DNA of 64,000 nucleotides, taken from NCBI GenBank assembly GCA_026026165.1, contig JAPEUD010000034.1, positions 124,001-188,000 of the forward strand, given 5' to 3'. This DNA comes from Sarea resinae. Lineage: Eukaryota. Both the position numbers and the translations under genes were made by a program. Of the stretch, positions 2,202-64,000 are shown piece after piece (within the stretch, counting starts at the first letter, position 1; each line of letters starts with the position of its first letter). The notes under the pieces are model-generated. The model made no database searches, was not told where the DNA came from, and worked only from the letters and a program-made list of their open reading frames with translations.

Positions 2202-5200
2202 TCAGATCCCCAAATCACCAACCCACGCCTCCCTGATCCCGAGTCCCAGAGTCATTGCCACACCCCTCGCGACGCTTCCAGCCACGATCCTCCAGCCCTG
2301 GCCTTCCGTACCGACCAGGATCTCGTGATCGGGGATTCCCTGCAACCTGCGCCCCTCGAGCACAGTCAGAAAGCGATCTTGCTCGTAATGCAGCGTGCGG
2401 CCTGAATTGTTACAGCCCTGGCGCATGCAGCTGCCTAGCGTAGGCGTGATCTTGTTACCGTCGTAGCGGCCCCAGGCGCGAGAAACTTTGAATTTGCGGT
2501 GCCTGAACGAGGCCTCATGTCTTTCGAGCAGTGGCCGAGGCAGGACCTTACGGTCAAAGGCGGTGTTGAGGGCTGACGTGGGCGGATACTTGGGAATGAG
2601 CCCGATGAGTGCAGTGTTTTGCGGTGTCAGCGTCTTAGGGTTAGGGGGCCGGTGATCCGGGTGGGAGAGGTAGAATTGGCTGCCAGAATCCGCATCGAAA
2701 GGAGAGAAGTCGGGGAATGGTGGTGGCAGATCCTGGATGGCTTCTTTGAGCGTAATGTGGTTAAAGGGGGTGGAGCCGAATTTCCGCATGCCAACTTGTT
2801 TACGGTTGGCGAGGCGTGATATGCATCTGCTGGGAGTGCCCTTTGGGTGACTATGTGATGGGGCTGGTGGAGGAGGTAGCTTACATCCTGGAGCGGCGAT
2901 AGAGATGTAGAGTCGGGACTGATTTGCTGCGCCGCCAAAGGACCAAGCATCAAGATTAAATTGCTGCACTTGGTATCCCATGCCTAAAAGGCAGCAGACT
3001 AGTTGCGCAAACACGTCCTCGCCCGGAACATGGCTCTTGCCAGCCAAGCAGAGGAGGTTCTCAATCAGAGCGTATTTGGGGCGGAAAAAGTCGATACAAG
3101 CGGCGACAAGAGCAACGAGGGCACGTCCTTCTTGAGCATTAACAGTCATTGTGTAGCGGTTAGCATTGGAAAAGGGTTGGCTAGGGGGTTCTGCTATTAT
3201 CATTTCCACTTCTCCTGCCTTCGGATATCCGGGCTTTCCAGCCATGCAACAAGCTAGAAAGTTGCTGATGTCGCCGAGATAAAACTGGGCCCCCGAATAC
3301 TTTGGTTTCGCATTCGCTCGTTGCGTATGAATCTCTGCTGATGATACGTCGACACACCACTGGACAGAAATGGCTCCCCCTTCTTCCAGTCCGCGACCAA
3401 AACTACCTCCGCAGCCCCACAGGTCTAGTGCTTTAAGTGGCGGGCGAGATGGCTGAGCTGTAGGATCAAAGCTCTCAACAAGCCCGGTAGGCATAGCCTC
3501 AAGTGGTTCGAGGCGTTGTGTCGAATTCTGATATCGATATGAGATATAGTATGCGTCTCCAGTGCCATTGCGATTGTATGGTGCGGGGATCTTTCTATCA
3601 CCTTGGTCTTTGGCCGAATAGAAGCGAACGAGGCATTTTCTTTCCACAAATTCAGCCGGAACCCAGAAAGTTGTCTCAGTGTAGAGAAGCTCATTCGGGG
3701 CAGCGTTGCTGCGGAGTTCTTGTGCAGGTAAAAGCCGTCTGCACAATACTTTCCTCTTCTTCTGGTTGAGCTCTAGTATCTCGACCGGATTGAGCGTATC
3801 AGAGCCTTTGTTTCCCACTAACACTGTATCCCCAACGCAATATGTCTCCTTCACTCTCTGAAAATCAGATTTGCATCCTCGATGCACACATTCAAAGTCG
3901 GGCGTCTCTAAATTCGCGAAGGCATGGTCGGTAGTTCGAAAAGTCCGACATACAAAGTATGATCCATTCGACTGAGAAGGGCAGGTAGAGATAGAGAACG
4001 ACACTGGAACTTTGCACATGACTCTTTCTATTTCGAGCTTTTCGGTGCACTGATCAGATAGAAAAAGCTCGTTCGGGAAAGGATAGAGCATTTTCCCGCA
4101 CGTTGTGTCGGCAGGCTTATATAGCCATAATACATGCAGAAATTGTCTCCCACGCTGATTAGTCAAAACATCTTGAACATAGGCAAACCATTGCTCTAAG
4201 TCTCTTCCGCCACCGACGTCAAGGCAAAGCACAACATCCCCTGCTTTGACCGGCTCTAGAAGACTGTCTGCACAGAGAGCCCTTTCTGCAATTGTCCAGT
4301 CGAATGACATTGGCACTGATGCTGGCGGCTCTAGAGACGTTTTGACGTAATTGCAGCGAGGAAGGATGCCCTGGAGGAAGCTTCCCCAAGATAAATGCTC
4401 GAAGCAGTCCTTGACAAAGGGCGTGACAACAATCGAGCTGACTCCTGGTTTGAGCTTTATTGCTGCATCCAATAATTCTGGGTGGAACTCCCCCCAAATC
4501 GAATGCCCTTCTAGTTCCTTTTCAATGTCTGTGGCCTCCTTCCACAAAAACCCTGGATTAGCTGTCAAGAAACTCCGGAAGTCGGTCCCAGAGAATCGCT
4601 GACACCATTTCTGAAATTCTTGATTATGCCTATGCAGAAATTTAGCCCATGCGTAGAATTTATCCTTGAAATCTACTAGCTTTGCGGAGCGATGGCTGGT
4701 CAGGAAGGAGGTGAAGTATTTTGAGAACGTAGCAATCCTGAGGAAGTGATTATAATAGTAGCTGTACTCTAAAAGCGGCCACTTCAGATTGTACCAGATG
4801 TTCCTGTCCTCGTTGAACGTTGATCGAATCCAAATTTGATCTCGAGAATGGTGTGCTTCGCCAATAGATAGTTGACTAAAAGGTACCCTCTGGACGTAAT
4901 AATTTCGTTTCGCATCACTGAGGACTCCATCAAAGTAATAGACCCGGTGTCCACCGAGTGTGCGGAGATTCTGCAGCGATGCAAGTTCAGCACTTGTGCT
5001 AGATAACGCCTCAACAGAAGAATCTCCTTTCCTCTTGTCCGACACCGGGCAGAGCCTATATATGCTGAAATGATGTAGCTCTATCTGCTCGAAGCTATCT
5101 TCAAAGTGGCCAGACAAAAAGTCGCCCTGCGGGATCTAAATCATGTAAATTAGCGATCGAATAAACTCGACAGGCAAACATCAGGTTACCTCGAGTTTCA

Positions 5201-6464: not shown

Positions 6465-8183
6465 TCTCTGATACCGAGGGTTTCCGCTTCCCTACGTTAG
6501 GACGTCCACTGCAGAAGCAGAAGCCGGAGTTCACTACATGGCGAGGATCCACATATATAAGCCCATTTTCGACTGGATTCGGGCTAGGTAAACAACGGAC
6601 ACGTAGCTAAGCAACGCAGAAAGCGAGAATACAGACGGTTGCCCGTTGCACAGAACAGGGATAGTAAAGTAGTAATCACGCATATCCTGCAAGTTCCAGG
6701 TTGCCGATTCCATACCGAAACGAGCTTGGTGGGGAGTTGCCAATCCATGTAATTGACGAATTACCTAGAGCTAGGCCAAGCCCACCAGGTGTTGGGTGCA
6801 ATCGCAATAACTTAAAAAAAACGATGTCAAGCTCTGAAGTCAAATATCCATTCCAGAGCAAGCAACGACAATCAAGCCAGGTGCTTTCGTGTCCAGCGTA
6901 GCGACCGGGGTTGGAGATCGCAGCACTGGACATGATGAAGTAAAGCCTGGTTCATGTTCTGTGGATTTTGGAAGATTGAGCGACCTCCCGAGCACGCAAG
7001 CCTGTCAGGGCTTACCCGCCGTAGCAGGAACGAGTGATTGCACTCATCATTCCCTCTTTGGCGAGAATTGAGAGCTTGCAGTTGGCTTGTCCCCAAGTAT
7101 GGCGCTATAGCTTGTGGTGGTCACCGCGGCATGGCGCGGATTGAGCGACTGTCAAATGGAAGTCGCCAAAGCCGACCAGCACCTCAATGTTGGGTAACCA
7201 ATGCTGCCATGGGCTGCAGAGTAAATTCTATGGTGTGTGCTCCTGCCTACCCATAAGCACGGACCGTCGCAACCGTGGGCGTGATAGTAATTATCGGTTT
7301 CTATCATCGTTGAGTTTCTAGTTGCTACCTTGGAGGAGTGCAGGAGCCAGCCCAATGTTGTCGTGGTTCTGAAGCGAGCTTATATACGCCTGTAGGAACA
7401 CTTCGCCGCGGGAATGGTGTCCTGACCTTTTTCGTACGGCTGCCTTCAAGCAGGCGGAAGCGGATACCAGAAGACATCCTATTCCTCTTCCAGATTATCT
7501 GATTGATGTACGTGAAAACGCTCGCCGCTTTCGGACCTCAACTCTGATCTGTCTGTCTCGCGTCTGCGAAAGCATGGCCGTCACGCGCCGGCGCACAGGA
7601 CAGGAAAGCGGATATGATCAAAGCGTCTAGGGCTAGGAGCATGTAGTGAAGGGGTAGAGTGTAATGCCTTGCTAAGAGAAGATCGCGATGCGAGATGACA
7701 GCAATGAGAAGAGAGGTGAGAGGCGGTGCTAGATAGGCCTTCCGCCACTGACTTGAGACGTCATCGAAGCCCTGGATCGTTCGACTTTGAATCCTGTATA
7801 TCGATATCTTCATGCACTGGTTGGAATGCGTTCGGCTGTCTTCATGGTATGGCATTTGTAACTATCGGGCTGGTATACATGGTGATTGACCCTTGGAAGG
7901 GACTTGGAGGAAGCAATTCTGGTGTGTGTTCTCACTGGGATAGATGGGCTCCCATCATGATGATCATCATCATCTTCTGAAAAGTGACACCAGACACTCC
8001 ATATCCATCCATCCGTCTCGTTTCCTATGACCCACAATTTGTAGCCAAAATTCATCTGAGGTCGTGCATCTGAGACTACACTGCTTCTGTTGGTTCGGAA
8101 ATCTCGTTTCTCTCAGCGCCCTCTTCAAACGGCTATATACCTGTTTCCTGGAAGTGCCCTAGAACGCAACAGCTATCATAACT

Positions 8184-20977: not shown

Positions 20978-21587
20978 TCATCGGTTGATGAATTCTGGCT
21001 TCTGTTCCATCGTCTGTGAAATAAACCCCCGCAATGCGGCCCATCGACTCGCCGTGGCTCCGCCTTCGGCTGCAGGAGCGCTCATGGCAGCGTCAGGAGC
21101 TGGTACTACAGCCTTGGTGTCCACCAGCTGTGCCATGTTCTTGCCGAACCGCTCCCTCTCCTGCTTCTCGAGCTTTTCTTTGCGCTTCATAGCGCCGGGC
21201 CTACTCTTCAAGCTCTTATGTCTGATCCTCGCGTCGCCGACGACGTGGCCGTCCCCATCTTCGGCTTCATGGTCTGGTAAAGCGTCGACCAAAGACTCGA
21301 GATCCGTGATCAGCTTTTTCGACGGCCGTCTCCGCTTCTTTGTCTTTCCGTTTCCTTTTTCGATCTTGGAGACAAAGGAAGAGTGCTTAATCGTGCGCTT
21401 GTCTTTCTTCGAGCTGCCGAAGCCGGTATCGACGGCGTTGAGAGACGGTCGTGGTTGGGGCAGGGCGCCGGAGCCCGAGCGAGCTGCGCGATCCCGGATC
21501 GAGGAGCGTTTTCCTTTGGTAGGCGCCTGCAAAGATATCAGCTCAAAGAATCTTTCGCAAGGAAAAGAGAGCGTAATGAGGTACCAT
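20978..21587 (-). CDS. SLX9: Ribosome biogenesis protein Slx9/FAM207 family
   Basis: SKKDKRTIKHSSFVSKI, KRRRPSKKL, LESLVDALP, SLKSRPGAMKRKEKL..ERERFGKNM, RWAALRGFISQTME. Probable ATG-only first coding exon (21585-21587) and intron 21527..21584. Confidence 0.85.
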
Positions 21588-21783
21588 GATTCTGTTCGTC
21601 TATGTGAAACTGTTCCGTCCAGCTGCTTGAGTCGTGAAGACTGACTTTCATATGGCGTCGGGTCTGTGCTTCGCGAATCTCTGGCGTCCCGTAGTCGGTG
21701 TAGATTTTCTTATCGATAAGAGCAGACCTCTCGATATGCCCCACCAGGCCTCACGAAAGGTGCACAATACTCTGGAGAGCAAA

Positions 21784-23388
21784 ATGGACCCGGCGAACAA
21801 GAGCGTTGATGTCTTGAGACAGCAGATAGCAGCCACGGAGCGAGACCTCAGCGCACTAAAGGAGGAGCTTGCGTGCGCCGAAGCCAACGCTGCTCGTAAT
21901 CGCGGGGATGACGCAGAAGAAGACCTGAAGACCCCTCACGAGGAGCACGAGAGACCATGGAGATGGCCCTTACGGGCAGAAGAATACCAAAGATACGGCC
22001 GCCAATTGATCCTCCCGGAAGTCGGTCTGCAAGGTCAGCGCCTCACTCACTCCTTTCTGCAGACCCAGCGCTAAAGTCATGTATCATGGCAGGCCAGCTA
22101 AAACTGAAGGCGTCGTCCGTACTGATCGTCGGAGTTGGGGGCCTTGGATGTCCTGCCGCCATGTATCTTGCCGGAGCTGGCGTGGGAAGACTCGGGCTGG
22201 TGGATGGCGATACGGTCGAGATTTCCAACCTGCATCGTCAGATTCTTCATAGCACGCCGAGGGTGGGGATGCGAAAGGTAGATAGTGCCATCACCGGCTT
22301 ACGAGCGTACGTCTCTGCTCTTGCAATGACCTCTTTCATTCCAATTGACTCGTCGCTCAAGTCTCAATCCAACTGTGCAATACGTTGCCCACCGAGAGCA
22401 CCTCACCCCCCAAACCGCCGTTGCCATCGTCTCCAAGTACGACGTGATCCTTGACTGCACCGACCATCCCACCTCGCGCTATCTCATCTCCGACGCGGCA
22501 GTGCTTTTGGGGAAACCCCTCGTGTCAGCATCCGCCCTTAAAGCGGAGGGCCAACTCATGGTTCTCAACACTCCGCCCACAGCCCCCGGTGAAAATCACG
22601 GAGGGCCTTGCTACCGTTGCGTCTTCCCCAAACCGCCACCTCCCGACAGCGTCCTCAGTTGCGGTGATGGCGGTATTCTCGGGCCCGTCGTAGGCACAAT
22701 GGGGGTGCTTCAAGCAATCGAAACTATCAAAATCCTCACCTGCAATACTCCCAACCCCTCGAACAACCCCTCCACAAACGCCTCCAGCCCGTCGCCTCCA
22801 ACGCTCCTGCTCTTCTCCGCCTACACATCCCCCCAGTTTCGTAGCGTCCGCCTCCGCTCTCGCAGACCGACATGCTTAGCCTGCGGGCCCCACGCAACCA
22901 TCACCGCGGAATCACTGACCTCGGGCTCTCTGGACTACATCCAATTCTGCGGCGTCGCCAACCCGGCCGCCTTACTCTCGGCCGACGAGCGGATCAGCGC
23001 GCGTGATTTTTCCCGAACAATCGAGCGGGCCGCGCACGACACCGAAGCAAACAAGCTTGTGCTTGTCGACGTGCGCGAGAAGGTCCAGTTCGACATCTGC
23101 CATCTCCCCGATAGCATCAACATCCCCTTCTCCCGTATCCAGGCCATGCAGACGGCCACCCAGAGCTCGTCCGCAGACGAGCCAGAGTCGCAGCAATTCC
23201 TCGCTCCCATCCTTGGCCCCCAGTTGCCCATCTACGTGGTCTGCCGTCTCGGCAACGACTCCCAGGTCGTCGTCAAGGTCCTGAAGGCCGCGGGACTCGA
23301 TGAGGGCGGGAAGCGGTATATTGGTGATATCCGCGGCGGCTTGAAGGCATGGAAGGAGGAGGTCGAGCCGGAGTGGCCTGAATATTGA
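21784..23388 (+). CDS. UBA4: Adenylyltransferase/sulfurtransferase Uba4/MOCS3 (ThiF/MoeB plus rhodanese)
   Basis: [44 protein letters not shown], rhodanese CRLGNDS. Introns 22034..22092 and 22307..22361. Confidence 0.95.
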
Positions 23389-23850: not shown

Positions 23851-25460
23851 CTACATCCAACGATTCCGAGCCGGTTCCCGGTACTTGACCTGCTCCGTGG
23901 CCCGATGCCTCTTCTCATTCTGAGCCTCGTGATAGCGCCGAATCATGTCTTGTACGCGCTCGAGGTTCGACACGGGCTCCCATGTGTTCTCGGACGACGG
24001 GTAGCCCGTCCATTTGATGAGATAATGGTGTTCGTGGCGGCCTTTGCTCAGGGCAACCATGCGGTCGTCGAGGATGGCTTCGATCTGGTATTCGCCTTTT
24101 TCTTTCTCATTTTCATCGTCGTCGCTTTCTTCTTCGTCATGAACTTTTTCTTCTTCTTCGTCGCTGTCTTCTTGATCCGAGTCGGGAATTATTTGGGGAA
24201 GCCTCGCTGGGCTTGGTTTAGCCAGAGGAATATGCGGAGTGCGTTGGACTTGGTGGTGTTTTCGAGGAGAGAAGAGAGCGCTAGAGGGCTTTCTACGGCG
24301 TTTGCGATAAGGCGGAGGGGTTTCTGTCTTGCGGGAAGTGGTGGTTGTAGCGTCTACGATGGAAGGTGTTGAGGAAATCTGGGCTTTGAGAGAATCCGAG
24401 AAGCGGCGACGCCTGCGTTGCTGGGGAGTATCGTGCGGATTGAAGATGTTGCTTGGTTTAACGGAGGGTGCCAGCTCTTCAGGATCGTCTGATCTAGGCC
24501 GACGTGGTGACGTAGACGTGGAAACGAAAGAGGCTGATTGTCTGGTCAGCGATGACCTAGTGGATGGGAAATTAGAAACGTACCAGAGCGAGGCGGCATC
24601 TCTCGGAGCCCGTATCCAAAGTTGCTGTTGAGAGCTGTTCTGGACGAGTTGCTCGATAGATGACCGTTGGCTAGGGAAGTTGGCGACCGAGACGACCAAG
24701 ACAAGCTGCTTCCATCTTCAACTTCGTCTAACACCCTGCTGAGCTTGCCGTCGACCGTCATTGCATCGACCAGGCGTCTTCGTTTAGGTGGTCGACCTAA
24801 GCGTATTCGAGCTTGCTCACCATGGCCACCACCACCGTCACCGTTGACAGCTAGCATAGGAGGAGCACCAGGAGCCTTCGTACATTTCCTCCGACCTTTT
24901 CCGAGCCTCTTCGCGTCCTCGATGGCAAACTGCTCGTTCTCGTAGTCCCGAAGCTGTCGTGCAGATATATGGTTGAGGACATCTTCTGGACCAACTTCCC
25001 TGTGAAAGACTCCGCTGGCTTGCTCTGTTCTTATGGAGTAAACGACGCGTCCGCCCTCGAGAGTACGCCTCGAAAGGATCGTAACCCGGGACGGTCCATC
25101 ATCGCTCGCAGAGTCTGCATCCGCGCCCGTGAAACGGATGGGTATGCTCTCAGTGCGCGGCGTATATTCTGGCTTTCGAGTCGTGCCTCTGGACTGTTTA
25201 GCTACCGTATTCGCGAATGGAAGGGGCGGTTTGAGCCGTGAATGCTCGGAAGTGATGCCGTGTCCCCTGCTGCGCAAAGGCGGAATCTCGACACGATCGA
25301 GCAGCAATCGAGTTGGAGGGCCCCCAGGCGACTCGGTCGGGTGATGGTGTCTCGCTGTTGCTATGGACGCCAGTTCAGAGGACGACAGCACCATGACTGC
25401 ATGGCGGGGAGGAGTCGACTGAGTTGCAGCTTGATGGGTGCGGGCCGAGACGGAGGACAC
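23851..25460 (-). CDS. Chromodomain-containing protein (C-terminal chromo domain); start codon uncertain
   Basis: Two ORFs joined in frame by intron 24534..24583 (GTACGT...GCTGAC...CAG). C-terminal YQIEAILD...YLIKWTGYPSSENTWEPVSNL. Confidence 0.8.
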
Positions 25461-26007
25461 ATGATATCCTCTGGCAACCGGGCAGTCATGGTTCCCTCGT
25501 CATCGCTGCATGGCTGGTTTGCGCGCGCAATTCACTGTTGTTGTCTGGCGGTCAAAGCCTCGCCCCAAGGAAGATTCCGTCCCCTTGGGCGCTTCGCGAC
25601 AGCTTCTCTGCTCTTCTCTTCTCTATTCGATGCTCAATGCCTCGATCGAGATGCCGTGCCACCGCCTGACGGGGTCTGCTTTACAGATAAGACTCGAGAC
25701 CGGTGAACGAGCGAATTCATCGCGCGATTCTCCGAGGAACTGACAGCGCTCTCGAACCCTGCGCCGCGCGTGTGCGCCTGTCGCGGGCGTCGGCGCGGTG
25801 CCACCAGTGGGTTACCCGGCGCCGCACAGGCCGCCAAGCCACCGCTCCGGCGACCTCAAGCCATCACGACGCAACTTTCACTTTCGCTTTCGCTTCCACG
25901 ACTCTCGACCTCACCTCGCTCACATCGACGCTCATCCTCGCACTCTCTCACACCCCAACTCCACTCCATCCTGCTGGACAACGATCTCTTCGACAGTCCA
26001 GGCAACG

Positions 26008-26883
26008 ATGCTAGCAACATCGACCATTTCTCCCCTCCGCGCCGCGGCCGCTCGCGGCTGCTGCAGGCTGCAGCCCGCCGTTGCTCTCCGCACGTCATAT
26101 GCGTATGCTGGAGCTGCACCGACGGCCGTCTCCACCACCACCACCACCTCGGCGGCGCAACCATGCCGGAAGCTCTCGCACAAGGCAGACTCGCCGCTCA
26201 GCAACGGCGGCAACAGCAGCCGAAGGGTGGCCAAAAGGGCCTTCTTTCAGCCCTCGCACACCCCGTTCGCCTTCCCAACCGCAAGCACCACGCGCGCGGC
26301 CTCCACCGCCTCCGCCTCGCCCGCGACATCTGCTTCCACCGCCTCTCCCGCGCACCTCGATTGGAACACATTCCTGCAGCTTCGCAAAGTCCGCCGACGG
26401 TATACGCTGGCGGCCTCGATTGCAACCTCGCTCGGCACGACGCTCATCGGGGTCCAATTCCTCTCCCACCAGGACATCGAGGCCTTGAGCGGCCAATTCT
26501 TCGGCCTGGACCCGTTCGTCGTGCTCGGCATCGCCACAGCCGTCTTTGGCGCCTCGGGCTGGCTGCTGGGACCCTTTTTTGGCGAGAGGCTGTTCTTGAC
26601 CGTGAACAAGAAATTCAAGCTCGAGATCGCGGCCGTGAGTCTCGTCAATCCCGTCATTTTCGGAACAGAGATGACATGAATTGATACTGACTGATCTCAT
26701 CAATGACAGAAAGAGAAAGAATTCTACAAGCGCATAAAGCGCTACCGGGTCGATCCGTCCTCGCAGTCCTTCTCCAACCCGGTGCCGGACTACTACGGTG
26801 AGAAGATTGGAAGTGTCAAGGAATACCGACAATGGCTCAAGGATCAGCGGGCGTACAACAAGAAGAGACAGCGGTTCCTGTGA
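26008..26883 (+). CDS. PAM17: Mitochondrial presequence translocase-associated motor subunit Pam17
   Basis: LDWNTFLQLRK, GLDPFVV, GWLLGP; intron 26635..26709; exon 2 KEKEFYKRIKRYRVDPSSQSFSNPVPDYYGEKIGSVKEYRQWLKDQRAYNKK. Confidence 0.95.
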
Positions 26884-32629: not shown

Positions 32630-33984
32630 TTGGTTGCAGAGATACATGTAGCCTACCCCAGATTTCGCGTAAGTCCGATCCAGATACCTACTGTACTCCG
32701 AAGTACTCGTCCCATATGGATGTTTTGGATCTTCGATAGCCCGAGAGCATCCATGGATCCATTATCCATCGATGATCTGCCCTGCCCTCCACGGCAACAT
32801 CGCTACGACCAAAGAGGCCCCGAGATGCACGCCGTTGCCGGGTTCGTCATGCATCGGGTCAGACTGGTAGCCCGCAGCCAACTGATTCGTCTTGCGCGAG
32901 CGAGAGACGGATGCTATTCGCAGACTACGGGATTTTTACATGATAATGGAACTACGTCTCCATTTCGGTTGGAAGATTTCAGATACAGTCGGGCCTTTAC
33001 GAGGTGCGTACGGCGTCCTTCGTACATGAGCACGAAGCTTTGGTCATGTGCGACGCATCTTGGATGATCCGTTTCAGGGACGAGCCCGGATGAGTGCCAG
33101 CTGGCTCCTGATGGATTGTCTCTCCGGACGACACGACAAGTATCCCTCAGCTCGTGCGGATCTCATAAACGACCGTCGACGGCGCAGGCTGAGTATGGGG
33201 GCCAGGAGCAAAGTGGTGCGCACGTGCGGCTGTTATATCCATGGATCGAGGTGATATTGGACCTGCGGGCCTTGATATGCAGCGCAAGTAGTGCGATCCC
33301 ACGTCTGCGGTAATTGACTCGTGCGCTGTACAAGCGAGCATCAGCGTCCTATCGCTGCCAAATTCACCGCCCATGCCAGCAAAGCAACGATAGGGAGACG
33401 GTTCACCGAGTGACGCGATGAAGCACGCTTGAGAGCGAGAGTTGAACGGGCAAGATCTCACCTACCTGGGCCCACGGCCTGCGGAAGAACAAAGAACGGT
33501 CAAATGGGTGGGATTGCGCTCGAGAGACCCTCAGACTCTCGGACCCTCGTCTAGCTCTCTTCGCCCCCGCAACCCCGGTCGGCTATGGGTCGAAACCTGG
33601 AGAAATTACTACCTGTGGAGCTACTGGGTTGCTCGAATGCCATCAAATTCCATCGTTCCGTCGCATGACGTCCCGAGCGACAAGGACCACTCGCTCGCGA
33701 CCAGCCCGGATCTGTCGACCCATCTGTCTCCCTCCCTTTCGAACTTGCCTGAGGCGACAGCCATGTGCGCCACAGCAGCCAACGAAGACAAGACCGGGGA
33801 AACACAACCTTATCTCCTCCCCTTGCAGCGCTAATGTCCCAGTCCCCGCATTTTGTCCCCCGATCTTCATTCGGCCCCCAATGGAGGTTGCCATGTCCGA
33901 GACTGTGGCACCGGCACATATTTAATCCAACTTCCCACCTTCTTTCTAGCCAAAGTTTCTTGGGTTGCCACACTAGAGCTCAAC

Positions 33985-35724
33985 ATGGCACGTCATTTCA
34001 CCTCCAAAGCAGCAGAGGATGCTGGCGTCTCCTACGACGCCGAAAAGACCCTCGAGCCGGCCAAGTTCGAGCATGTGCCCATCGTCGATGGATCACTGCC
34101 GGATCCCGATGCTGGCTTGAGTGAGCAGGAGAGAGCACAGATCGTATTCTTCCTCAAGCTAGATGTTAGGGATACTACTAACACGATCAACAGGATAGGA
34201 AGCTCTTGTGGAAATTGGACGTGAAATTGATTCCTTGGGTACGTCGGCAAGCCAAAGGTCGAAAAAAGAGCCCCAATTGACAGGGCATTTTAGCTATGCC
34301 TGCTCTACCTCGCCTCGTTTCTCGACAGGACCAACATCGGAAACGCGAAGATCACTGGTCTAACGAAAGATCTCCACCTGACAGATGGGCAATACAACGC
34401 TTGCCTAAGCATATTTTTCGTCTCTTATTCGCTTTTCGAACCACTGACCAATGTCCTCCTCAAGCGTCTTCGGCCGCGCATTTTTATTCCATCGATCATA
34501 GTCGTCTGGGGCATCGTCATGGTCACCATGGGCTTGGTGCACGATTTTTCGGGGCTCATGGCGGCCCGGTTCTTCTTGGGTGTGGCGGAAGCCGGACTGT
34601 TCCCGGGAGTCAACTACTACCTGTCATGCTGGTATAAGCGGTCCGAGTTCGGGATCAGAGCAGCCTTTTTCTTTTCATCTGCTGCAATCGCTGGATCGTT
34701 TGGCGGTTTGCTTGCTGCGGCCATATCCAAGATGGAGGGCGTGGGCGGGAAGCATGGCTGGGCTTGGATCTTTGTGAGTGACCTCGTGATCTGCTTCCAG
34801 CGGCCTTGCCCTCCATCCTTGCCCTCCATCTTTGCTGCACGATAGCATCATGTTGATTTTGACACTAAACAGATACTTGAAGGCCTCGCCACTTTCTTGA
34901 TCGGCCTGGTCTCCTTCTTCATGGTCTACGACTTCCCTGATGAGGCACGCTTCCTTTCCGAAGAGGACCGTCTTCGGGTCATTCGTCGCCTCAAGCAGGA
35001 CCAACAGTCAAGTGCCGAACACGAATCCTTCAAGATGGCTTACTTCTGGGCTGCCTTGAAGGATTGGAAGACCTACCTCTCGATGGTCATCTACATGGGA
35101 GCAGACTGCCCTCTATACGCCTTCTCCCTATTTATTCCCACCATCATCAATGAACTGGGCTACACGTCAACAAGGGCACAGTTGCTCTCGGTTCCTCCGT
35201 ACGCTGCAGCAGCTGTTCTCACAATCATTGTCGGCTTCATCGCCGACCGCACCCGCCAGCGCGGCCTCTGCAATATCGCCGTCTCCTTTCTCGGAATCGC
35301 AGGCTTCGGCATGCTGATTGGAAGTTCTACGGCTGGGGTGCAATACGCGGGGACCTTTCTGGGCGCCATGGGCATCTATCCGTGCATCGCCAATACGATA
35401 GCCTGGGCAAGTAACAACACCGAGGGCGTGTACAAAAGGGGTGTCGTTCTGGGGTTTGTGATCGGTTGGGGCAACCTGAACGGCGTCGTCAGCAGCAACA
35501 TCTATCAATCCCGAGACAAGCCAAAGTACCGGCCCGGACATGGCGTGGTACTGGGATACATGATCGTCTTTTTGCTGGGCGGATCCATCGTCCAGGAAAT
35601 ATTATTACGTCGCGAAAATAAGCTGAGGCGATCCGGGAAACGCGATTCCTGGATCGAAGGGAAGACTGAGAGAGAGATTGAAATGCTCGGTGACAGGAGG
35701 CCTGATTTCTTGTATACGTTGTGA
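33985..35724 (+). CDS. MFS transporter, anion:cation symporter family (Tna1/Dal5-like)
   Basis: DRKLLWKLD, FLDRTNIGNAK, RFFLGVAEAGLFPG, WYKRSE, GWAWIF. Introns 34144..34193, 34239..34293 and 34774..34872. Confidence 0.92.
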
Positions 35725-36159: not shown

Positions 36160-38196
36160 ATGAAAGAGCGTCATGGTTCAAGGCAGCCAACGGCCCTGCC
36201 TAATGACACCCAGAAGACGCTCAAATCTCACGCTGAACCCAGTTCGAGTGGACTTCTTTCACCTCCAAGGCACCAACCAGATGACCATGACACCAGCGAT
36301 CCCGAGACCGAGGACGACGATGTATTCGATGCTTACAATCTGGAAGGGATGAGCAAGGAAGAATTTGCCGCCATGGTCGCAGCCGCTCCGCCAGAAGAGA
36401 GACTGCAGGTCAAGGCCCTCTCACCAGACCTCACCTCTGATGCTACGTCTGAGTCTGCAGACGAAGAAGACCCAGAGTCACCAATCTACCTGTCTTCTTC
36501 CTCAGAGGATGAAGAGGATGCCGAAGATGAGACGCTTCCCTCCGTCGATGCCTCTATGAGCTTGCCACCGGCTTCGGAGCCCCAAAGATCCGCCAATGGC
36601 CTCGTCGACTACTACATCGAGAAGCATCCCTTCATGGGTGATGCTCTAAATACGCATACGGTCTCAGATCGAAGGGCATTCACGAGAGACATCTACGATT
36701 ACGCTCGGGCTCGAAATATGACTAGTAGTCAGGCGTCGGAAAAGGTCGAGGAGGCTCGGGAACAGTTCGTCGAGAGGAGGGTCATGGCTCTAGTGCAGGC
36801 TGGCCGAGCCCCTGATCAAACGCTCGGAGATGACGGAACCAATTGGATTCGAGAAGAGACGCCGTTGGGGAGCGAAATAGATGATTCGGATATGGTATTA
36901 GCGCTGGCAGAAGGAACAGAGGAAAGGCCTCTTGCTAGGGCCATCCGTGGCATAGCAGAGCAGAAAGGGCGGGAGCTCGCGCAGCATAGCGACTCTGGAC
37001 ACGTCGAAGAGAAGCGTTCAAAGCGAGACACTCATGATACCACCCCGACAACGAACAGTCATCCGAGCAACTTAGGCGGTGGATTAGGAGGAGCAAGCAA
37101 TCCAAATACGGATACACACAAGTCAAAAAGGAAGCGAAAGCGGAAGTCTCTCGCTGATGGGCATGCTGCGTCCAATACAACCCAATCTCAACTGGAAATG
37201 CCAGAGGGAGCAAATCTGCATATAAGGAAGAGACAACGTAAGCTCGAGAAGAAACTTTCTGGATCACACTATTCCACCGCAGACAGCACTCAGAAAACGT
37301 CTTCGACATCCGAGTCTCCGTCACCCAAGACCCCGGCACCAATATCACATAGTTTACTGACAACGGAACCAAATAAGCGCACCTCTACCACCAAATCCCA
37401 AAGCACAAAACCCACCATCGCAAAGGTCACGCCAGCTTCTCAAAGTAAGAAAAAGAAGAAGCGAAAAAACAGATCGACCGCTTTGAATATTGAGAAAGCT
37501 CCAATAGCGTCACCGCTCTCAGAGTCCAAGAACGGTGGAGCTGAAGTATCCTCCCAGCCAACTTCTCGCTTCTCTTCTGCGCTTAATGGAACGGCCGTGA
37601 GCGAATCATTAGGTGAAGATCGCCGGAAAGCAAAAATGGAGAGACGCAAGAAGAAATCGGAGCTTGTGGACAAAGAGATGCCGGTTGATCTGTCATCGGA
37701 TATATTAACTAGGTCTGCGAGGAAAAGGGAGAGAAGAAAAGTGAGAAAGAGCGAAGGGGAAATGAAGACCAGTGGATCGATCGAGGGCAGCCCACATGAC
37801 AAGAGCCCAGGAGCGAAGGAAATCAAAACGCTCACGCCTGTCGAAAACGAGCACCATGAGAATTCAAAAAGTCATACAGAGCGATCGCTAAAGGATGAGC
37901 AAATGCTGGTGGACGGGTCCGAGCATAATCACTCTCTAGGAAATGACATTGATATGCCAGATGCCCCTCACACATCTCGTCCAAGCGAAGCCCACTCGGG
38001 GACGCTGATGAAGAGTCCTAGCGAGAAGGGTTTAACTCCGCCGAACATAAGGCCAAGGAAATTCGCAGAATTTGTCTCGAGTCCTGGTATTGGAGGCAAT
38101 CCTGATGAGACTGTCTCGGACATGGAACAGGCTGCTCAACCGACAACACCGCAGGAGCAGCAGGATTTTCACATTCCGAGGATTCACCAGGTCTAG
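36160..38196 (+). CDS. Lys/Ser-rich nuclear-like hypothetical protein (678 aa); probably the N-terminal part of the glycosylase locus
   Basis: ATG ORF with a small helical block (HPFM..DRRAFTRDIYDYARARNM) and many basic NLS-like runs; its last 88 nt overlap the open -1 frame of the next ORF. Confidence 0.75.
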   Translation: MKERHGSRQPTALPNDTQKTLKSHAEPSSSGLLSPPRHQPDDHDTSDPETEDDDVFDAYNLEGMSKEEFAAMVAAAPPEERLQVKALSPDLTSDATSESADEEDPESPIYLSSSSEDEEDAEDETLPSVDASMSLPPASEPQRSANGLVDYYIEKHPFMGDALNTHTVSDRRAFTRDIYDYARARNMTSSQASEKVEEAREQFVERRVMALVQAGRAPDQTLGDDGTNWIREETPLGSEIDDSDMVLALAEGTEERPLARAIRGIAEQKGRELAQHSDSGHVEEKRSKRDTHDTTPTTNSHPSNLGGGLGGASNPNTDTHKSKRKRKRKSLADGHAASNTTQSQLEMPEGANLHIRKRQRKLEKKLSGSHYSTADSTQKTSSTSESPSPKTPAPISHSLLTTEPNKRTSTTKSQSTKPTIAKVTPASQSKKKKKRKNRSTALNIEKAPIASPLSESKNGGAEVSSQPTSRFSSALNGTAVSESLGEDRRKAKMERRKKKSELVDKEMPVDLSSDILTRSARKRERRKVRKSEGEMKTSGSIEGSPHDKSPGAKEIKTLTPVENEHHENSKSHTERSLKDEQMLVDGSEHNHSLGNDIDMPDAPHTSRPSEAHSGTLMKSPSEKGLTPPNIRPRKFAEFVSSPGIGGNPDETVSDMEQAAQPTTPQEQQDFHIPRIHQV

Positions 38197-39863
38197 CCGG
38201 TGAGGAGGTAGTGAACGAAAGTATTCCTGATACTATAGCCCCGGAAGACATTGCAAAAGACCCCACAGCAGAGAGGGGTCTAGGTTATCGAAACAGAAAT
38301 TATTTACCAGCGTTGGAGATGAAAATTTCAGACTCGGCATGTTCTTCCAAAGACGAGATGCCACCACTAGAAGTTTACCCCGAGATCGTCAAAGAAGAGC
38401 TCTATACACATGATTCGTCGGCCGATAAGCAGCTTCCTCAATCCCAGGTCCTCATCGACAACTCTTCGCGCAAGACAGAATTGTCGGAAGCATTATACGG
38501 TTCCGATTCCGATAGCCCACTGTCAGATTTACCGCCATCGTCACCTACGTGGGAGGAAGATAGATCTGGTAGCGACATCATCGAGCTAACCTCTCGCAAA
38601 GAATTCCCAAGTGCTATCGAGACATGCACACGACCTCGCACGCGGTCGCAAACCGGCCAGGATAATATCACACTACCCCGAGAAATAAGACCCAAGACTG
38701 CCAAGAAGTCTCCTTACTTTGACACCCCATCCCCAGCGAAGAAAAAGCCATCCCTTGAAAAGAGAAGGCGGCCCCCACGCGGCACTGTCTCGTGCATCCC
38801 ATTCCCACCACTCTCCTCCCCTAGCTTCGGCCTCATCCAGGAGAAACTTGCTCATGACCCATTCAAGCTTCTCGTAGCCGTCACCTTTCTCAACCGCACA
38901 AAAGGCGCACAAGCTATCCCGGTTTTCTACCAACTTATGGGCGCCTACCCGACGCCCGCCGCTCTTGCCGGTGCCGACGAAAAAGACGTCGCGAGCCTGA
39001 TTCGTTCCCTCGGACTTCAAAACACGCGGGCGAGACGCTATATCCAACTCGCCAAAGCCTGGGTCGCCGAACCTGCTGCATCTGATCGTCGATATCGCAA
39101 GCTCCATTACCCTACCGCGGGCATGGGCAGAGATATCAAGCCCACGGAGATCCTCACAGATGACGACTCTCGCGACGGAGCGTGGGAAATCGCACACCTT
39201 CCTACTGCCGGTCCTTATGCGCTCGACAGCTGGCGTATATTCTGCAGGGACAAATTGCGTGGGGTGGCGGATGGTTGGAATGGCGAGGGGGTGACGGACC
39301 CGGCATTCGAGCCCGAGTGGAGACGAGTGGCGCCAAAGGATAAGGAGCTGCGGGCTTTCTTGAGATGGATGTGGCTGAGGCTTGGATGGGAGTGGGATCC
39401 GAAGACTGGTGAGAGGAAGATTGCCGGGGACGAGTTGATGACTCAGGCGCGAGTTGGGGGGATCGTTTGGGAGGAGGTCGAGGGTGCAGACGGGGAAGAG
39501 GTCAAAGAGACGGTCAATGGCGAGAGAAACGGCTCGGAAGTGGGGTCCGATGTTGAGGTCAAAGGGGAGGCTGAAGATGGAGGGCCTGCCGATGAGTCTC
39601 ATAGCACGGTCAAGGAAGAGGGTGGCCTGAGCGAAGAGATGGTCGACGTCGATAACGAAGACGAAAGCGAGGACGGAGGGGGAGACGCCGACGAAAATTC
39701 CGAGGAAGGCATGCAGTACGAGACTGCCCCCACCGCCGGCGCGACCACGACCGCGACCAACAGCTTAGCGGCGCCTTCTCCCTCCCCTCCATCCCCTCGC
39801 CCAGATCAAGACGCCGACGGGAAAGAAGCTCTTGTGAATTTCTCTGCGGCGTTGGCGCTCTAA
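38109..39863 (+). CDS. MBD4-like HhH-GPD DNA glycosylase (G:T/G:U mismatch family); coordinates give the open frame, true start unresolved
   Basis: FGLIQEKLAHDPFKLLVAVTFLNRTKG, LGLQNTRA and HhH LPTAGPYALDSWRIF with the catalytic Asp, then PKDKELRAFLRW. Frame is open from 38109; first ATG at 38319. Confidence 0.88.
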   Translation, partial: DCLGHGTGCSTDNTAGAAGFSHSEDSPGLAGEEVVNESIPDTIAPEDIAKDPTAERGLGYRNRNYLPALEMKISDSACSSKDEMPPLEVYPEIVKEELYTHDSSADKQLPQSQVLIDNSSRKTELSEALYGSDSDSPLSDLPPSSPTWEEDRSGSDIIELTSRKEFPSAIETCTRPRTRSQTGQDNITLPREIRPKTAKKSPYFDTPSPAKKKPSLEKRRRPPRGTVSCIPFPPLSSPSFGLIQEKLAHDPFKLLVAVTFLNRTKGAQAIPVFYQLMGAYPTPAALAGADEKDVASLIRSLGLQNTRARRYIQLAKAWVAEPAASDRRYRKLHYPTAGMGRDIKPTEILTDDDSRDGAWEIAHLPTAGPYALDSWRIFCRDKLRGVADGWNGEGVTDPAFEPEWRRVAPKDKELRAFLRWMWLRLGWEWDPKTGERKIAGDELMTQARVGGIVWEEVEGADGEEVKETVNGERNGSEVGSDVEVKGEAEDGGPADESHSTVKEEGGLSEEMVDVDNEDESEDGGGDADENSEEGMQYETAPTAGATTTATNSLAAPSPSPPSPRPDQDADGKEALVNFSAALAL

Positions 39864-45779: not shown

Positions 45780-47258
45780 ATGGGCTCCACCGCACCTCTT
45801 CTCACGGATCTAGCATCCCAAGTCTCGCAGAACGCCGAGATCATCCAGAAATTCCTCGAAAAGAATAACATCGCCGACCTCAGCTTTGATGTCGATTCAT
45901 CTTCAAGCTTCCCAGTCGATCCGGAGAATCGAGACATCTACGCGGCTAGGTTTGCCCTCATCGACTCCGCCAAACAGATCCAGGATCTCGTCACCGGACC
46001 TGACGACACGATAAAATGGCAGACCATGAACGTGGGGATCTCGGTTGAAAGGCAGATCTGAACACTACTGACGATTCCAGTATAAACACATCACCGCCGC
46101 GTACCACGTCATCTATCACTTCAAGATCGCCCAGGCCGTGCCAGACAAAGGTAGCATCACCTTCCCCGAGCTTGCCAAAGCCACGGGCGTGCACGAGACG
46201 ATCATTGCTCGCGTCATCCGCGCGCTCATCCCGGGCAAGATCTTCGCCGAGCCCAAGTCGGGCCAGATTGCTCACACTCCCATGTCGAAGCTCCTCGCCC
46301 GCGACAAGTACATCCAGGCGTGGGTCGGCCACAACACCGAAGACATCTACGTGTCCGAGGCCCGATTCGTCGATGCAATCGAGAAGTTCGGCTTCACGGG
46401 CGAGCCGAGCCAGACGGGCTTCAACCTGGCCTTCAACACCAACGACACGTACTGGGAGTATGCCGCGAAGCATCCCCAGCTGCAAGCGAGATTCAGCGAT
46501 TCCATGATCGCGGCGGCCGGGAAGGGGGTCGGAGACGCGAAACATCTCGCGACGCTCTACCCGTGGGAGAAGCTGCAGAAGGGCAGCACGATAGTGGATG
46601 TGAGTTTTCTGTCTCTGGTCGATGTGGATGCATGTTGATCCCGCGGTCTAGATTGGCGGCTCCGTCGGCCACGTCAGCATCGCCATCGCCGAGCGCTTCC
46701 CCCATCTCAACTTCGTCATCCAAGATCTTCCGGACGTCGAGGCCAACGCGCACGAAAATATCCCCGAGGAGATGAAATCGCGAATGTCGTTCCAGCCGCA
46801 CAACTTCTTCGACCCGCAGCCCGTCAAGGCGGCCGAGGTGTACATCCTCCGACAGATCCTCCACGACTGGTCGGACCAGTACTCGATCAAGATCCTGAAA
46901 CAGATCCTGGCGGCCATGTCTTCCGACTCGCGACTGATCATCATGGACAGCGTTCTACCGGAACCAAACACCATCCCGGCGCCCCTGGAGCAATTCGTCA
47001 GGTCCGTCGCCTTCTTTTCCGTCTTATACTCTGCAAACGTAGTCTCCATACTGACCTCGCAACAGGAGTCTCGATCTCCAGATGCTCACGGTCCTCAACG
47101 CCTGCGAGCGCAGCGTGCAGGACTGGGAATCGCTCCTCGAGCGCGTCGACCCGGCCTTCAAGATCGAGGGCATCACAAGGCCGGATGCGAGCCAGCACGC
47201 CATCCTCGAGATCCGCAAGCACGACAAGGACGGCAGGCCCAACCAGATCATTGCCTGA
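45780..47258 (+). CDS. Class I SAM-dependent O-methyltransferase (Methyltransf_2, OmtA/B-like)
   Basis: Winged-helix dimerisation region, VDIGGSVGH, FVIQDLP, HNFFDPQP, LRQILHDWSD, NACERS. Introns 46032..46080, 46600..46651 and 47002..47065. Confidence 0.92.
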
Positions 47259-47430
47259 ACCGTTGCTCTTCGACTTATTTTTTGATTTCTTGTCTTTTTC
47301 TTTTCGTTTTCTCGCCCCACGACCGGGCTCCCATCTATGATATGAGAATATGATTCCTCCCCACACCCCAAAAAAATACCCGAGCGTCCCAAGAATCTAC
47401 GTCCATTTCTCCTATTCTGCTTGACGTGCA

Positions 47431-53193: not shown

Positions 53194-54308
53194 TCAGCTC
53201 TCGGCGCACTCTGCCAGCAGCCTCTTATGACTTGCCATAGCCTGCTTAGCAAATTCGATCATATCATAATCCTTGCCTTTGCCTTCTGGCCCAGAGTCAA
53301 AGATCTCCATCGAAAAATAGCCCCTGAAACCCGTTCGCAAGACCGCTTTAGTCACCGCTACAACAGGCAGGTAACCCCCATCGAATGGCATGGGACGGAA
53401 ATCATGACTCCACCGGCCCTTGGGCCTCGTCCCGGTCTCATCAACGTCCTTGCTGAACGGACGTTTCGGCTTGTAGGCATCGGAGATCTGCAGGAAATAA
53501 ATTTTGTCTTCTGGTATCGTCTTGGCCAACTTTTCCAGGCTCTGATTGAATTCGAGTTCTTCCTCCTCCTTGCCGCCACCGTGTTCGCCTTTCAGGAGCA
53601 TCATGCCCGTTTGCGTCGTAGGATCTGCCCACTCGCTACCTGCGGTCTGGAAGGTGTCGAGACATAGTCCAACATTTGGCTTGTCCACTTTCTTTACGAT
53701 ATCCCAAACACCATACCAGGTGGGAGCGTGCGTGGACCAGCACCAATTCTCGTAAGCCAAGCGGAAATTATGCTCCGCTAGCATATCAGCCAGGAGCCGA
53801 AGGTCGGAGACAATGTACTCGCGGTCGGTAATCATATCGGGGGAGTCGGATGAGCCAACCTTAACCACTCGTCTCAGTCTTTATCCAGCACGAGGAGGCA
53901 TCAATAAGGTTTCTGTACCTGGAGTGTATCCGTCCCCACGGCTTCCATGACCCGAATCCAGCCTTTCACCCGTCGAAATGCATCTTCTCTCTTCGGCGAG
54001 CCTTGTGGCCATCCCTCGAAATTCGAAAATGGCTGAAGTATGAATATCTTCAGGTTATGTTCTTGACAGAGTTTCTTGATTTGCTTTCCCACGTCACAGA
54101 TATCGTCGTAGTCGTAGGGTCCCACATCCTTTCTCAGCTGTGAGCTGGCAAACGAGAGGATATCAGGAAATGCTAATTCAATGGCGGAGAATCCAGCCCC
54201 CGAAATGGCTGCTAGCTTCTTGGGTAGAGTATCTGAGGCTCTACAGCCGATGGAGCAGCTAGCATAACAAGTGGGGATAGCAGATAGTGAGGGTGTAGTG
54301 AGAGACAT
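53194..54308 (-). CDS. Xylose-isomerase-like TIM barrel (AP_endonuc_2), 3-dehydroshikimate dehydratase/sugar-phosphate isomerase-like
   Basis: AGFSAIEL, LQPFSNFEG, LAYENWCW, GLCLDTFQ, LQISDA, GYFSMEIF. Intron 53860..53918. Confidence 0.85.
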
Positions 54309-55042
54309 CCTCAAGTTTCGGTTCGATTCGAGCTGTTAATAGCTGACGATTGAAAAACAAGAATTTGGGTCATGCTCGGATGCGACCTTGAGTACAATGA
54401 GGGCTCTTTTGTGATGTTTAGCTGGATGCTGCAGCGATGATGTTATGGTTACCTTACCTACCGCTGCGGTTTGTGTTGATGACGTCGCTGTTCATAGCTA
54501 ACCCTACCCTACCCAGCTACTTACCATACCTCTCTGCCTTCAGCTACTTCCTCACCAGCGTCACCATGTTGGCCTTCACTAATTTCGACGCGGCTGTTTG
54601 ACCTCGTAGTATGAGAGCATGCTATCTTCCGATGTCTATCGTAGAAGGGATTGAGATCGACAATATGATCCTTTGCAGTTTGGTCGGTCAACGTCATTTT
54701 TACCTTCGGTTTCTAATGATACTCTGTACCCCGTCTACGAAGTACCTTTAGCGGAATTATATGATCCCACAGTACGGTGTCTGATCGATCATCCAAAAGT
54801 AGAACGGTTGGGCCGGGCTCTTTACGGCTTCGCAGTGTTTTTGAACTGATACTGACTGTCAATCGACAGAGTATATACAGTCAATGGACAGCTAATTTCC
54901 TCCTTTCCGTGCTCTCTTAGTGGAAATGCCGTATCGATCACAAAACTCCCGCCAGGTAGCTACTCTAGGTAGTACTAGTAGTAATCACAAGTTACAGTAG
55001 AAGCCCAGTGTGTCGTATCCGTAGGTAGGAGGTAATCTCCAA

Positions 55043-63069: not shown

Positions 63070-64000
63070 ATGTCCGGCTTCCACCCCTTCAAGGGACGGG
63101 TCAGTAGACACTTCGTCGAGACGGTATGACCGATTGTTGCCTTGCTCCTGGAAGCGTCCGCCCGACTTTCTGTCTGGTCTGCCATATGACGTCCGTCGGA
63201 CGCCGCTGCTGGCGGGAATCTTGGCTGATGTGCCCCGCGTCTCCTTAGCTGAGCCCGGACGATGCATATCTGAGCTGTGAGTGCATCTTAGAATTGCCAA
63301 TGAAAATGTTTCTAATCACTGGACCTAGACTTCGATGTCCGCTGTATGTACGCCGGGCCATGAAAACTGCCATGGAGCAAGCATTGATGGCAGCATAGTG
63401 ACAAAAGAAGACGTCGATACTCTGAAGAATGATTGGCTGACCGACAATGTGAGCGATCCCCCACGTACTCTGCCTGAAGCTCGTGCTGACTTGCTCCAGA
63501 TCATTTCGTTCTGGGAAGAGTACGTCTCGCCTGCTACGGCAATGGTGAATTCATTGCAGTCGAGGGACGTGCTGAAGCCTTACAGATATCTCGAGCGCGA
63601 GGAGCTCATCAAATTCCCCTCTTCCCACATTGTCCTCCTTCGTCCGTCCATGTGCTTTATGCTGAAGGAGACGGGAGATCCTCTCACTCTGAAAGATGCC
63701 CTCCCGAATTTCGCAAAAACAAGTCACATATTTCTCCCAATAAACGACAACCATAATGTTGAAGTTGCTGAAGGTGGTTCGCATTGGTCCCTGCTGGTTG
63801 TCAGTGTGATCGACGGCGTTGCATTCCATTACGACTCGCTCTCTTCTGCTAATCGAGAAGAGGCTTTTCGTGTCACTCAAAAGATGGAGCGTTTGCTGGG
63901 CAAGAAGCTCCGCTTTATCGATCTACGAGATAGCCCGCAGCAAGAGAATAGCTCCGACTGTGGGGTTTTTGTCTGTGTCGCGATGCAGCACCTGCTGCTC
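63070..64000 (+). CDS. DEN1: NEDD8-specific protease Den1/SENP8 (Ulp1/C48 family), 3' truncated by the window edge
   Basis: Exons 63070-63123, 63249-63276, 63329-63343, 63399-63448, 63500-63519 and 63586 onward give PDDAYLSYFDVRL..WLTDN, HIFLPIND, GGSHWSLL, HYDSL and QQENSSDCGVFV (His-Asp-Cys triad). Confidence 0.92.

Follow-up and report, generated by a model that had tools for sequence, protein, structure and literature searches.

The 64,000-nucleotide window of Sarea resinae analysed here (contig JAPEUD010000034.1 of assembly GCA_026026165.1, positions 124,001 to 188,000 of the forward strand) carries, in two overlapping reading frames, the parts of a gene for an MBD4-like DNA glycosylase. 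The best explanation we can offer for how these parts are still joined, unproven and in our judgement a little short of an even chance, is programmed -1 ribosomal frameshifting on the heptamer G_GAU_UUU, near the end of the upstream open reading frame (ORF), which we call ORF1. We infer the existence of a fusion protein, a ribosomal mechanism for bridging the two frames, and the role of the heptamer as slip site. In its full form the proposal, which we hold just as tentatively, is that lichen-forming and allied ascomycetes have an ancient programmed -1 frameshift in a nuclear gene for DNA repair. A single-base deletion, retained over a very long time beside GG(A/G)UUUU, would set the ratio of a short N-terminal protein to the full-length MBD4-like protein, and the fusion would have been hard-wired independently by indels in several lineages.

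ORF1 (36160..38196, forward strand) runs in frame 0 from an ATG at 36160 to a TAG at 38194-38196 and encodes 678 amino acids of a basic, largely low-complexity protein, the N-terminal part of the ancestral gene. Its codons sit at positions equal to 1 modulo 3; those of the glycosylase frame, which is open for 584 codons on the same strand (38109..39863) and has no ATG before 38319, sit at 0 modulo 3 and are therefore in the -1 phase. The initial annotation had described this geometry correctly. When the coordinates were re-read, the two frames overlapped by 88 nucleotides with the second in frame -1, the overlap contained the in-phase heptamer that had been claimed (CAG GAT TTT, giving GGATTTT at 38163-38169, read G_GAU_UUU), and the first ATG of the glycosylase frame, at 38319, lay 123 nucleotides past the ORF1 stop. 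The stop itself falls two codons past the His of a conserved motif and at the loop of a predicted hairpin, both described below. The two halves appear as separate entries in the protein collection, of 678 (P0121) and 501 amino acids, and length-matched protein searches that took ORF1 or the first 230 residues of the -1 frame as query found no proteins but those of the window itself. The sequence GGTCTAG occurs twice on the forward strand, at 38190-38196, where it contains the ORF1 stop, and 87 nucleotides away at 38277-38283; the second copy would supply the next frame-0 stop if 38191-38238 were removed.

Comparison with homologues indicates that the two frames belong together. HhH-GPD is the only Pfam family found in the -1 frame (38796..39375, forward strand; PF00730, E 1.8e-8). 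The best 15 PDB matches of this domain are, at E about 1e-20, MBD4 chains (1ngn, 4ew4 and others); the alignment with them retains the catalytic Asp, which sits in the ..DS.RIF.. segment. This bears out the MBD4-like label that the domain had been given. ORF1 matched no Pfam family at E up to 0.1, so no methyl-CpG-binding domain was detected in it. Its amino acids from about 36 to 250 (36265..36909, forward strand) form a conserved N-terminal domain of unassigned function, with blastp and phmmer matches to 30 other proteins (E 1e-12 to 1e-25), many of which also carry the glycosylase. Searches with the glycosylase frame found 217 longer homologues, mostly from Pezizomycotina, and 120 of these were listed. 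The closest among the matches listed come from lichen-forming and allied fungi (Pycnora praestabilis, 68% identity; Candelaria, 62%; Sclerophora, 59%), and 15 of the 120 also match the N-terminal region of ORF1 (amino acids about 40-260). Fused homologues of this kind align in tblastn collinearly with ORF1 and then with the -1 frame. An exhaustive phmmer search with ORF1 returned 19 proteins, the window's own included, and searching with ORF1 in this way added four further fused proteins in which the glycosylase part is present (P0125, P0126, P0127 and P0129). Because at least 11 orthologues unite the N-terminal domain and the glycosylase in one protein, collinear in tblastn, ORF1 and the glycosylase frame are on this evidence the halves of a single ancestral gene, as the initial annotation had proposed in placing them together. 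Two homologues, P0131 and P0111, have a KH_1 domain near the conserved N-terminal region, which may be either an RNA-binding module present in some lineages or the product of gene models that merge neighbours. A metagenome scan yielded one distant locus only (L001, 46% identity), without an ORF1-like part or the motif.

The break between the halves recurs in relatives. We surveyed 31 ORF1 homologues, the window's own included; the frames, joints and stops of the other taxa were deduced from protein models only. The ORF1 tail, DFHIPRIHQV*, is a form of a conserved motif, [DG]F..P[MR]I, and 6 of the 31 proteins end one to four residues past it: the window's ORF1 (..DFHIPRIHQV), P0123 (..GFRSPMIHRQA), P0128 (..DFQRPMIQ), P0131 (..DFSSPMIR), P0133 (..DFTHPMIQLA) and P0136 (..DFRAPMIPAK). 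The five from outside the window lack a glycosylase domain and, being cluster representatives, are each less than 50% identical to the others. A pattern search found no form of the motif in 15 of the 31 homologues; among the 14 motif-bearing relatives, [DG]-F is present in all except the Pycnora model. The recurring frame-0 stop is seen in six homologues of the 31, and the open -1 continuation was observed in the window alone. Across these taxa the ORF1 stop just past the motif is, by this comparison, conserved, and we estimate it very unlikely that unselected out-of-frame sequence would give stops so near the motif. On the N-domain tree the break is found on long branches in each of the two major groups: the window and P0123 belong to the first, P0128, P0131, P0133 and P0136 to the second. 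Because several divergent lineages share it, the frame break is, as far as their protein models tell, old and tolerated. One further protein, P0137, a close relative of P0128, stops right after the D-F of the motif (..AQAQDFF) without the P-M-I continuation; a different T-run length is possible there.

Other lineages read through the same place in frame and, judged from their models, are joined at three or four different places. The read-through joint lies between P and D in Glutinoglossum (DFHSPDDSPSKAGNEG; in-frame variant DFHSPDDSPSKAGNEGIV), in P0124 (GFLLPSDTPYVAGVEGV) and in P0127 (DFEDPNETPPMPGVEGM). It lies after PMIH in the fused models of Candelaria and two Candelina species (GFHSPMIHQK..) and of Trapelia (DFQSPMIHC..), which read the internal motif in frame 0, and at or before F in the Pycnora model (VFSQSDDSPNMSGVEGL, which contains FSQSDDSP). 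The loci of these named fungi are Glutinoglossum americanum FGG08_006110, Candelaria pacifica M1812_007447, Candelina mexicana M1836_006130, C. submexicana M1835_004630, Trapelia coarctata MMC30_004237 and Pycnora praestabilis M1827_003086. By the genetic code, P-M-I-H spelled CCG ATG ATT CAC becomes.CC GAT GAT TCA (..D-D-S) when read one base earlier, so that the PMIH and DDSP forms would be the same nucleotides in two frames. From CAC to the A/T-G/N-E-E block the protein models imply 6 nucleotides in Candelaria and Candelina, 3 in Trapelia, and 8 in the window, Glutinoglossum and Pycnora; Candelaria, Candelina and Trapelia appear to be back in frame.

Two short blocks at the junction indicate where the missing base would lie. 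Block A (38166..38190, forward strand) reads F-H-I-P-R-I-H-Q in frame 0, resembling F..PMI[HQR] in 10 proteins, and F-S-H-S-E-D-S-P in frame -1, resembling both the FSQSDDSP of Pycnora and the DDSP of Glutinoglossum. A degenerate 23-nucleotide pattern for this block gave 14 bacterial and archaeal matches over a prokaryote genome collection, all attributed to chance. Block B (38196..38213, forward strand) reads A-G-E-E-V-V in frame -1, in register with the [AS]G.EG of relatives. An in-frame consensus derived from P0009, P0124 and P0127 (F-x-x-P-x-[DE]-x-P-x-x-[AS]-G-x-E-G) is matched at 7 of its 8 conserved positions when frame 0 D-F-H-I-P is followed by frame -1 E-D-S-P-G-L-A-G-E-E. Frame 0 fits as far as the Pro codon CCG (38176..38178, forward strand), and frame -1, as E-D-S-P-G-L-A-G-E-E-V-V, fits from the GAG at 38178. 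In this alignment G 38178 would serve both the Pro of frame 0 and the Glu of frame -1, and, compared with the in-frame taxa, the window and all P-M-I taxa would be one base short immediately behind the Pro codon.

Codon usage also points to translation across the junction. We scored coding potential as a codon-usage log-likelihood trained on the other genes of the window. Frame 0 scores 2.68 over 38089-38166, a value equalled by 3.4% of intergenic windows (best of three frames) and reached by no off-frame window of this gene. Frame -1 scores 3.15 over 38169-38240 and 3.87 over 38196-38318, the latter a value attained in 0.36% of intergenic frames and, among the open ones, in 1.9%. The segment 38196-38318 contains no start and yet seems to be translated; the -1 frame would then be entered from ORF1. 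The codon-usage change-point is flat between about 38130 and 38180 and did not locate the position of the shift.

We compared possible junction introns with a reference set drawn from the window's other genes. It comprises 13 likely introns, of which four are anchored by a Pfam domain that is split between ORFs. The reference introns are 50-101 nucleotides long and 29% T, with G at +5 in 10 of 13 donors; most have GT[AG]NG[TC] donors and a CTRAY-type branch 5-15 nucleotides from the acceptor. None of the 203 phase-compatible GT/GC..AG pairs at the junction has a consensus donor (they read GTATTG, GTCTAG, GTCCTG and similar), and the candidates contain 16-23% T, against 29% in the reference. 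The sole good 3' module, CTGAT..TAG (38227-38238), restores the frame only with donors at 38087 or 38081, and either would delete the motif. No canonical intron that fits the junction is available. The initial annotation had put forward as its competing model a 152-nucleotide intron (38087..38238, forward strand, 21% T). Its landmarks exist (GTATTG at 38087, CTGAT at 38227-38231, TAG at 38236-38238), yet the intron itself is contradicted and was rejected: it would delete the frame-0 motif found in 10 other taxa and the -1 block found in four, and so remove blocks A and B, and both halves of it are coding-like. Shorter introns from GTATTG were set aside, as they would delete the frame-0 motif and a stretch in common with the sister protein P0123 (QAAQ.TPQ..Q[DG]F). 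An intron from CAG|GTCTAG at 38191 would cost the A-G-E-E block and, in the -1 frame, 4 nats of coding signal. Two-intron solutions that use the repeated GTCTAG were rejected, as they meet stops or need GAG acceptors. A brute-force intron scan was too noisy for use. Good splice signals (G|GTGAGG, CTGAT, TAG) are present in a 39-nucleotide module at 38200-38238 on the forward strand. This module falls in the -1 frame and has a length divisible by three; its splicing would drop 13 codons, with part of A-G-E-E and the 3' arm of the hairpin, and would leave the frame unchanged.

The heptamer GGATTTT (38163..38169, forward strand), in the phase G_GAU_UUU, encodes the D-F of the conserved motif. It differs from the canonical X_XXY_YYZ, yet no other sequence from the opening of the -1 frame to the end of ORF1 is of a known -1 slip type. 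All motif-bearing proteins that are read in frame 0 have D or G ahead of the F, an alternation that can be spelled GG(A/G)UUU, with GAU and GGU as the two codons that do so. G_GAU_UUU also serves as a -1 shift site in dianthoviruses, the precedent that the initial annotation named. In the available part of the work on pea enation mosaic virus (PEMV), GGAUUUU is the -1 slip site, GGGUUUU gave 112% of wild-type activity, and 36-40% of activity was retained when P-site re-pairing was prevented (PMC4737148). As far as the available parts of two other sources go, GGAUUUU and GG(G/A)UUUU are cited as putative sites of fungal totiviruses (PMC6797558), and PEMV needs a stop just after the slip site (PMC5009743). 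A bipartite hairpin is predicted at 38172..38213 on the forward strand, starting 2 nucleotides past the heptamer, with an upper stem that pairs 38183-38188 with 38199-38204. The stem-loop suggested at the outset survives in part: its TCACC/GGTGA pairing is present in the minimum-energy fold of 38172-38215, with the UAG at the apical loop, but that fold is only statistically marginal.

Our proposal is that one base was lost next to the short conserved motif, which would have broken the frame of the ancestral gene, and that ribosomes may bridge the break by programmed -1 frameshifting inside the 88-nucleotide overlap. The likeliest slip site would be G_GAU_UUU, with help from the hairpin and from the nearby frame-0 stop. 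Most ribosomes would then produce the 678-amino-acid ORF1 protein that ends in the motif, and a minority would produce a fusion of about 1234 amino acids and 135 kDa that carries the glycosylase, with the predicted junction ..DFSHSEDSP.. for a slip on the heptamer.

Several observations weigh against this proposal. Frameshifting by -1 is rare in cellular genes, which gives it a low prior. The missing base maps 9 nucleotides downstream of the heptamer, where nothing slippery lies, and the fusion would lose the invariant Pro of F..P if the ribosome slipped at the heptamer. GGATTTT is not enriched in the window (8 copies, with 9.4 expected), and [DG]F is kept equally in taxa that need no shift (P0009, P0124 and P0127). 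The fold of 38172-38215 has a free energy of -13.6 kcal/mol and a z-score of -1.82, with 11 of 200 shuffles as stable; larger fold windows are not significant (z -0.29 to -0.89), and an Rfam search found no known RNA family. Pairwise similarity past the motif is not significant on its own, and of the 27 inner branches of the poorly supported N-domain tree, 12 are open. The truncated homologues may be ORF calls that enter ordinary introns, and the fused models may hold predicted introns; ordinary donors could account for some of the stops, in that the last residues of five of the truncated proteins (Q, R, A, K and A) fit a phase-2 GTRAGT donor.

Frame changes in fungal genes are caused far more often by introns than by anything else, and it is possible, though we consider it unlikely, that the halves are joined by a weak and probably alternatively used intron in the end of ORF1, which would give the ORF1 protein when retained and the fusion when removed. 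Such an intron could run from the GTATTG donor at 38087 to a CAG acceptor at 38130, 38154, 38160 or 38163 (44-77 nucleotides), or from CAG|GTCTAG at 38191 to 38273 or 38318. Phase-compatible GT..AG pairs are present, and donors without G at +5 do occur in the window (GTAACC, in a methyltransferase gene). An alternative intron would also account for the conservation of both block A frames and for the Pycnora model that reads the motif in the -1 frame, and the truncated homologues could be mere ORF calls entering it. However, no donor is near consensus, no CTRAY branch lies near the acceptors at 38154-38163, the acceptors for the 38191 donor are GAG, and the composition is exon-like rather than T-rich like that of the window's introns. 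The upstream candidates would remove the frame-0 stretch in common with P0123 and leave the fusion without the invariant Pro, and the 38191 candidates would remove block B together with its -1-frame coding signal. Moreover, Val stands two before F in 2 of the 6 truncated taxa, so that an AG acceptor cannot be conserved there.

Somewhat less probable still is a true gene fission with no fusion, in which ORF1 stands alone and the glycosylase is either made from the ATG at 38319 or 38358, through an internal promoter in the end of ORF1, or no longer expressed. The protein collection does list the parts as separate proteins, several ORF1 homologues lack the glycosylase domain, and the motif, at the extreme C-terminus, could be a functional tail. 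Yet the -1 frame is open for 70 codons ahead of its first ATG and is coding-like there, block B has kept its register with the in-frame relatives, this frame offers neither an ATG nor a strong near-cognate start from 38109 to 38318, and only 123 nucleotides would be left between stop and ATG. It is also conceivable, if improbable, that recoding takes place off the heptamer, with the frame changing at or after the Pro codon at 38176-38178 or at the stop (within 38176-38196) by P-site slippage, a +2 shift or a short bypass, so that the fusion keeps F..P and continues with E-D-S-P. The position of the missing base comes immediately behind CCG, the stop is never far away, and such a fusion would match 7 of 8 consensus positions and keep the invariant Pro, which is present in all motif-bearing proteins read in frame 0; but CCG AGG ATT CAC CAG GTC TAG contains no known slippery pattern, and our literature search met no earlier example of this kind. 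An assembly indel, or a recent mutation private to this strain, in an otherwise continuous gene would explain the window alone by one missing base (T4 for T5, or G for GG after CC). This we regard as very unlikely, because the break is common to both major groups of the N-domain tree; in addition, five divergent homologues stop at the same motif, four more read P-M-I-H in frame 0, and the long ORFs of the window, of up to 977 amino acids, show no other unexplained frame break. A T lost from the T4 run through a homopolymer assembly error was an early reading, from when the motif matched only Pycnora, and was dropped once the homologue stops emerged.

The surrounding genes include two others linked to DNA methylation and heterochromatin. 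A large gene for a cytosine-5 DNA methyltransferase, with the domains DUF7893, BAH and DNA_methylase, lies on the reverse strand at 2202-6491, about 30 kb from the MBD4-like glycosylase; its two long ORFs are joined by a 54-nucleotide intron with the unusual donor GTAACC (5189..5136). A gene for a chromo-domain (HP1-like) protein, with a 50-nucleotide GTACGT intron (24583..24534), occupies 23851-25499 on the same strand. The presence of the methyltransferase, the HP1-like gene and the glycosylase within 40 kb may be coincidence. Pfam matches identify genes for SLX9 (20978-21709, reverse strand), a Uba4/MOCS3-like protein with ThiF and rhodanese domains (21912-23388, forward), Pam17 (25744-26679, forward), an MFS transporter (33433-35724, forward), an O-methyltransferase (46155-47353, forward), a xylose-isomerase-like TIM-barrel protein (53194-54335, reverse) and an Ulp1 protease cut by the window end (63329-64000, forward). 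Past the glycosylase gene, the intergenic segment 40050-40400 (forward strand) contains tandem-like repeats, with GCTATGC units, ATGGAGGAGC units and a CATG run.

Very few cases of -1 frameshifting are known in cellular eukaryotic genes, and PaYIP3 was the only one from a filamentous fungus met in our literature search, among sources available in part. That search found no publication combining ribosomal frameshifting, Pezizomycotina and a glycosylase, and for MBD4 in fungi it returned only plant and general papers. If programmed -1 frameshifting does operate here, it would be a second independent case, which would mean that recoding is not a one-off in filamentous fungi, and it would tie recoding to the dosage of an enzyme for 5-methylcytosine/T:G mismatch repair. 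It would also provide a natural series of lineages, frameshift-dependent and hard-wired, in which to follow how recoding sites originate from indels and subsequently disappear. In practice, annotation pipelines break this gene up or join it wrongly, as in the window entries of 678 and 501 amino acids and the Pycnora model in the other frame; the glycosylase family may need curated gene models.

Several known systems resemble the locus in part. Like the short spliceosomal introns of Pezizomycotina, which can join ORFs in different frames, the junction offers GT..AG pairs in the right phase, but no candidate has the length, T-richness, donor and branch features of those introns. The predicted protein resembles MBD4 in its putative catalytic domain, HhH-GPD, and in the Asp of ..DS.RIF..; it differs in that Pfam detected no methyl-CpG-binding domain, which animal MBD4 has at its N-terminus, and in having a long disordered linker and a different conserved N-terminal domain. 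The proposed arrangement is also similar to compensatory frameshifting over an indel, where a lesion in the DNA is offset for some ribosomes by a low-level shift nearby. In the available part of the review, such cases are mostly mitochondrial or viral, and no lineage-retained nuclear fungal case was met there (PMC5009743).

The heptamer and its phase are identical to those described for PEMV2 and the totiviruses, where A or G is likewise tolerated at the third base and a frame-0 stop likewise follows shortly downstream (PMC4737148, PMC6797558). Those sites, in the available parts of these sources, belong to polymerase genes of viruses, which have strong downstream elements as well as long-range pairings; the PEMV stop comes one codon past the site, against eight here, and the totivirus sites are predictions, as cited (PMC6797558). 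The closest cellular parallel may be PaYIP3, a conserved -1 frameshift in a nuclear gene of Pezizomycotina (PMC3777964). As far as the available part of that report goes, both are nuclear genes of filamentous ascomycetes; in PaYIP3 one mRNA yields a short product and a long -1 trans-frame product from a non-canonical slip site with a structure 2 nucleotides downstream, as we propose here with a predicted structure, and PaYIP3 has been conserved for long, with the frame relation changed in some lineages, as our arrangement would have been. The PaYIP3 shift has been shown by cDNA, by tagged protein and by a reporter at about 1%, whereas ours is predicted from sequence; PaYIP3 slips on U_UUU_UCC and has a pseudoknot in which compensatory changes are seen. 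Finally, the long form of PaYIP3 adds a novel extension, whereas here the downstream frame would supply the ancestral catalytic domain itself.

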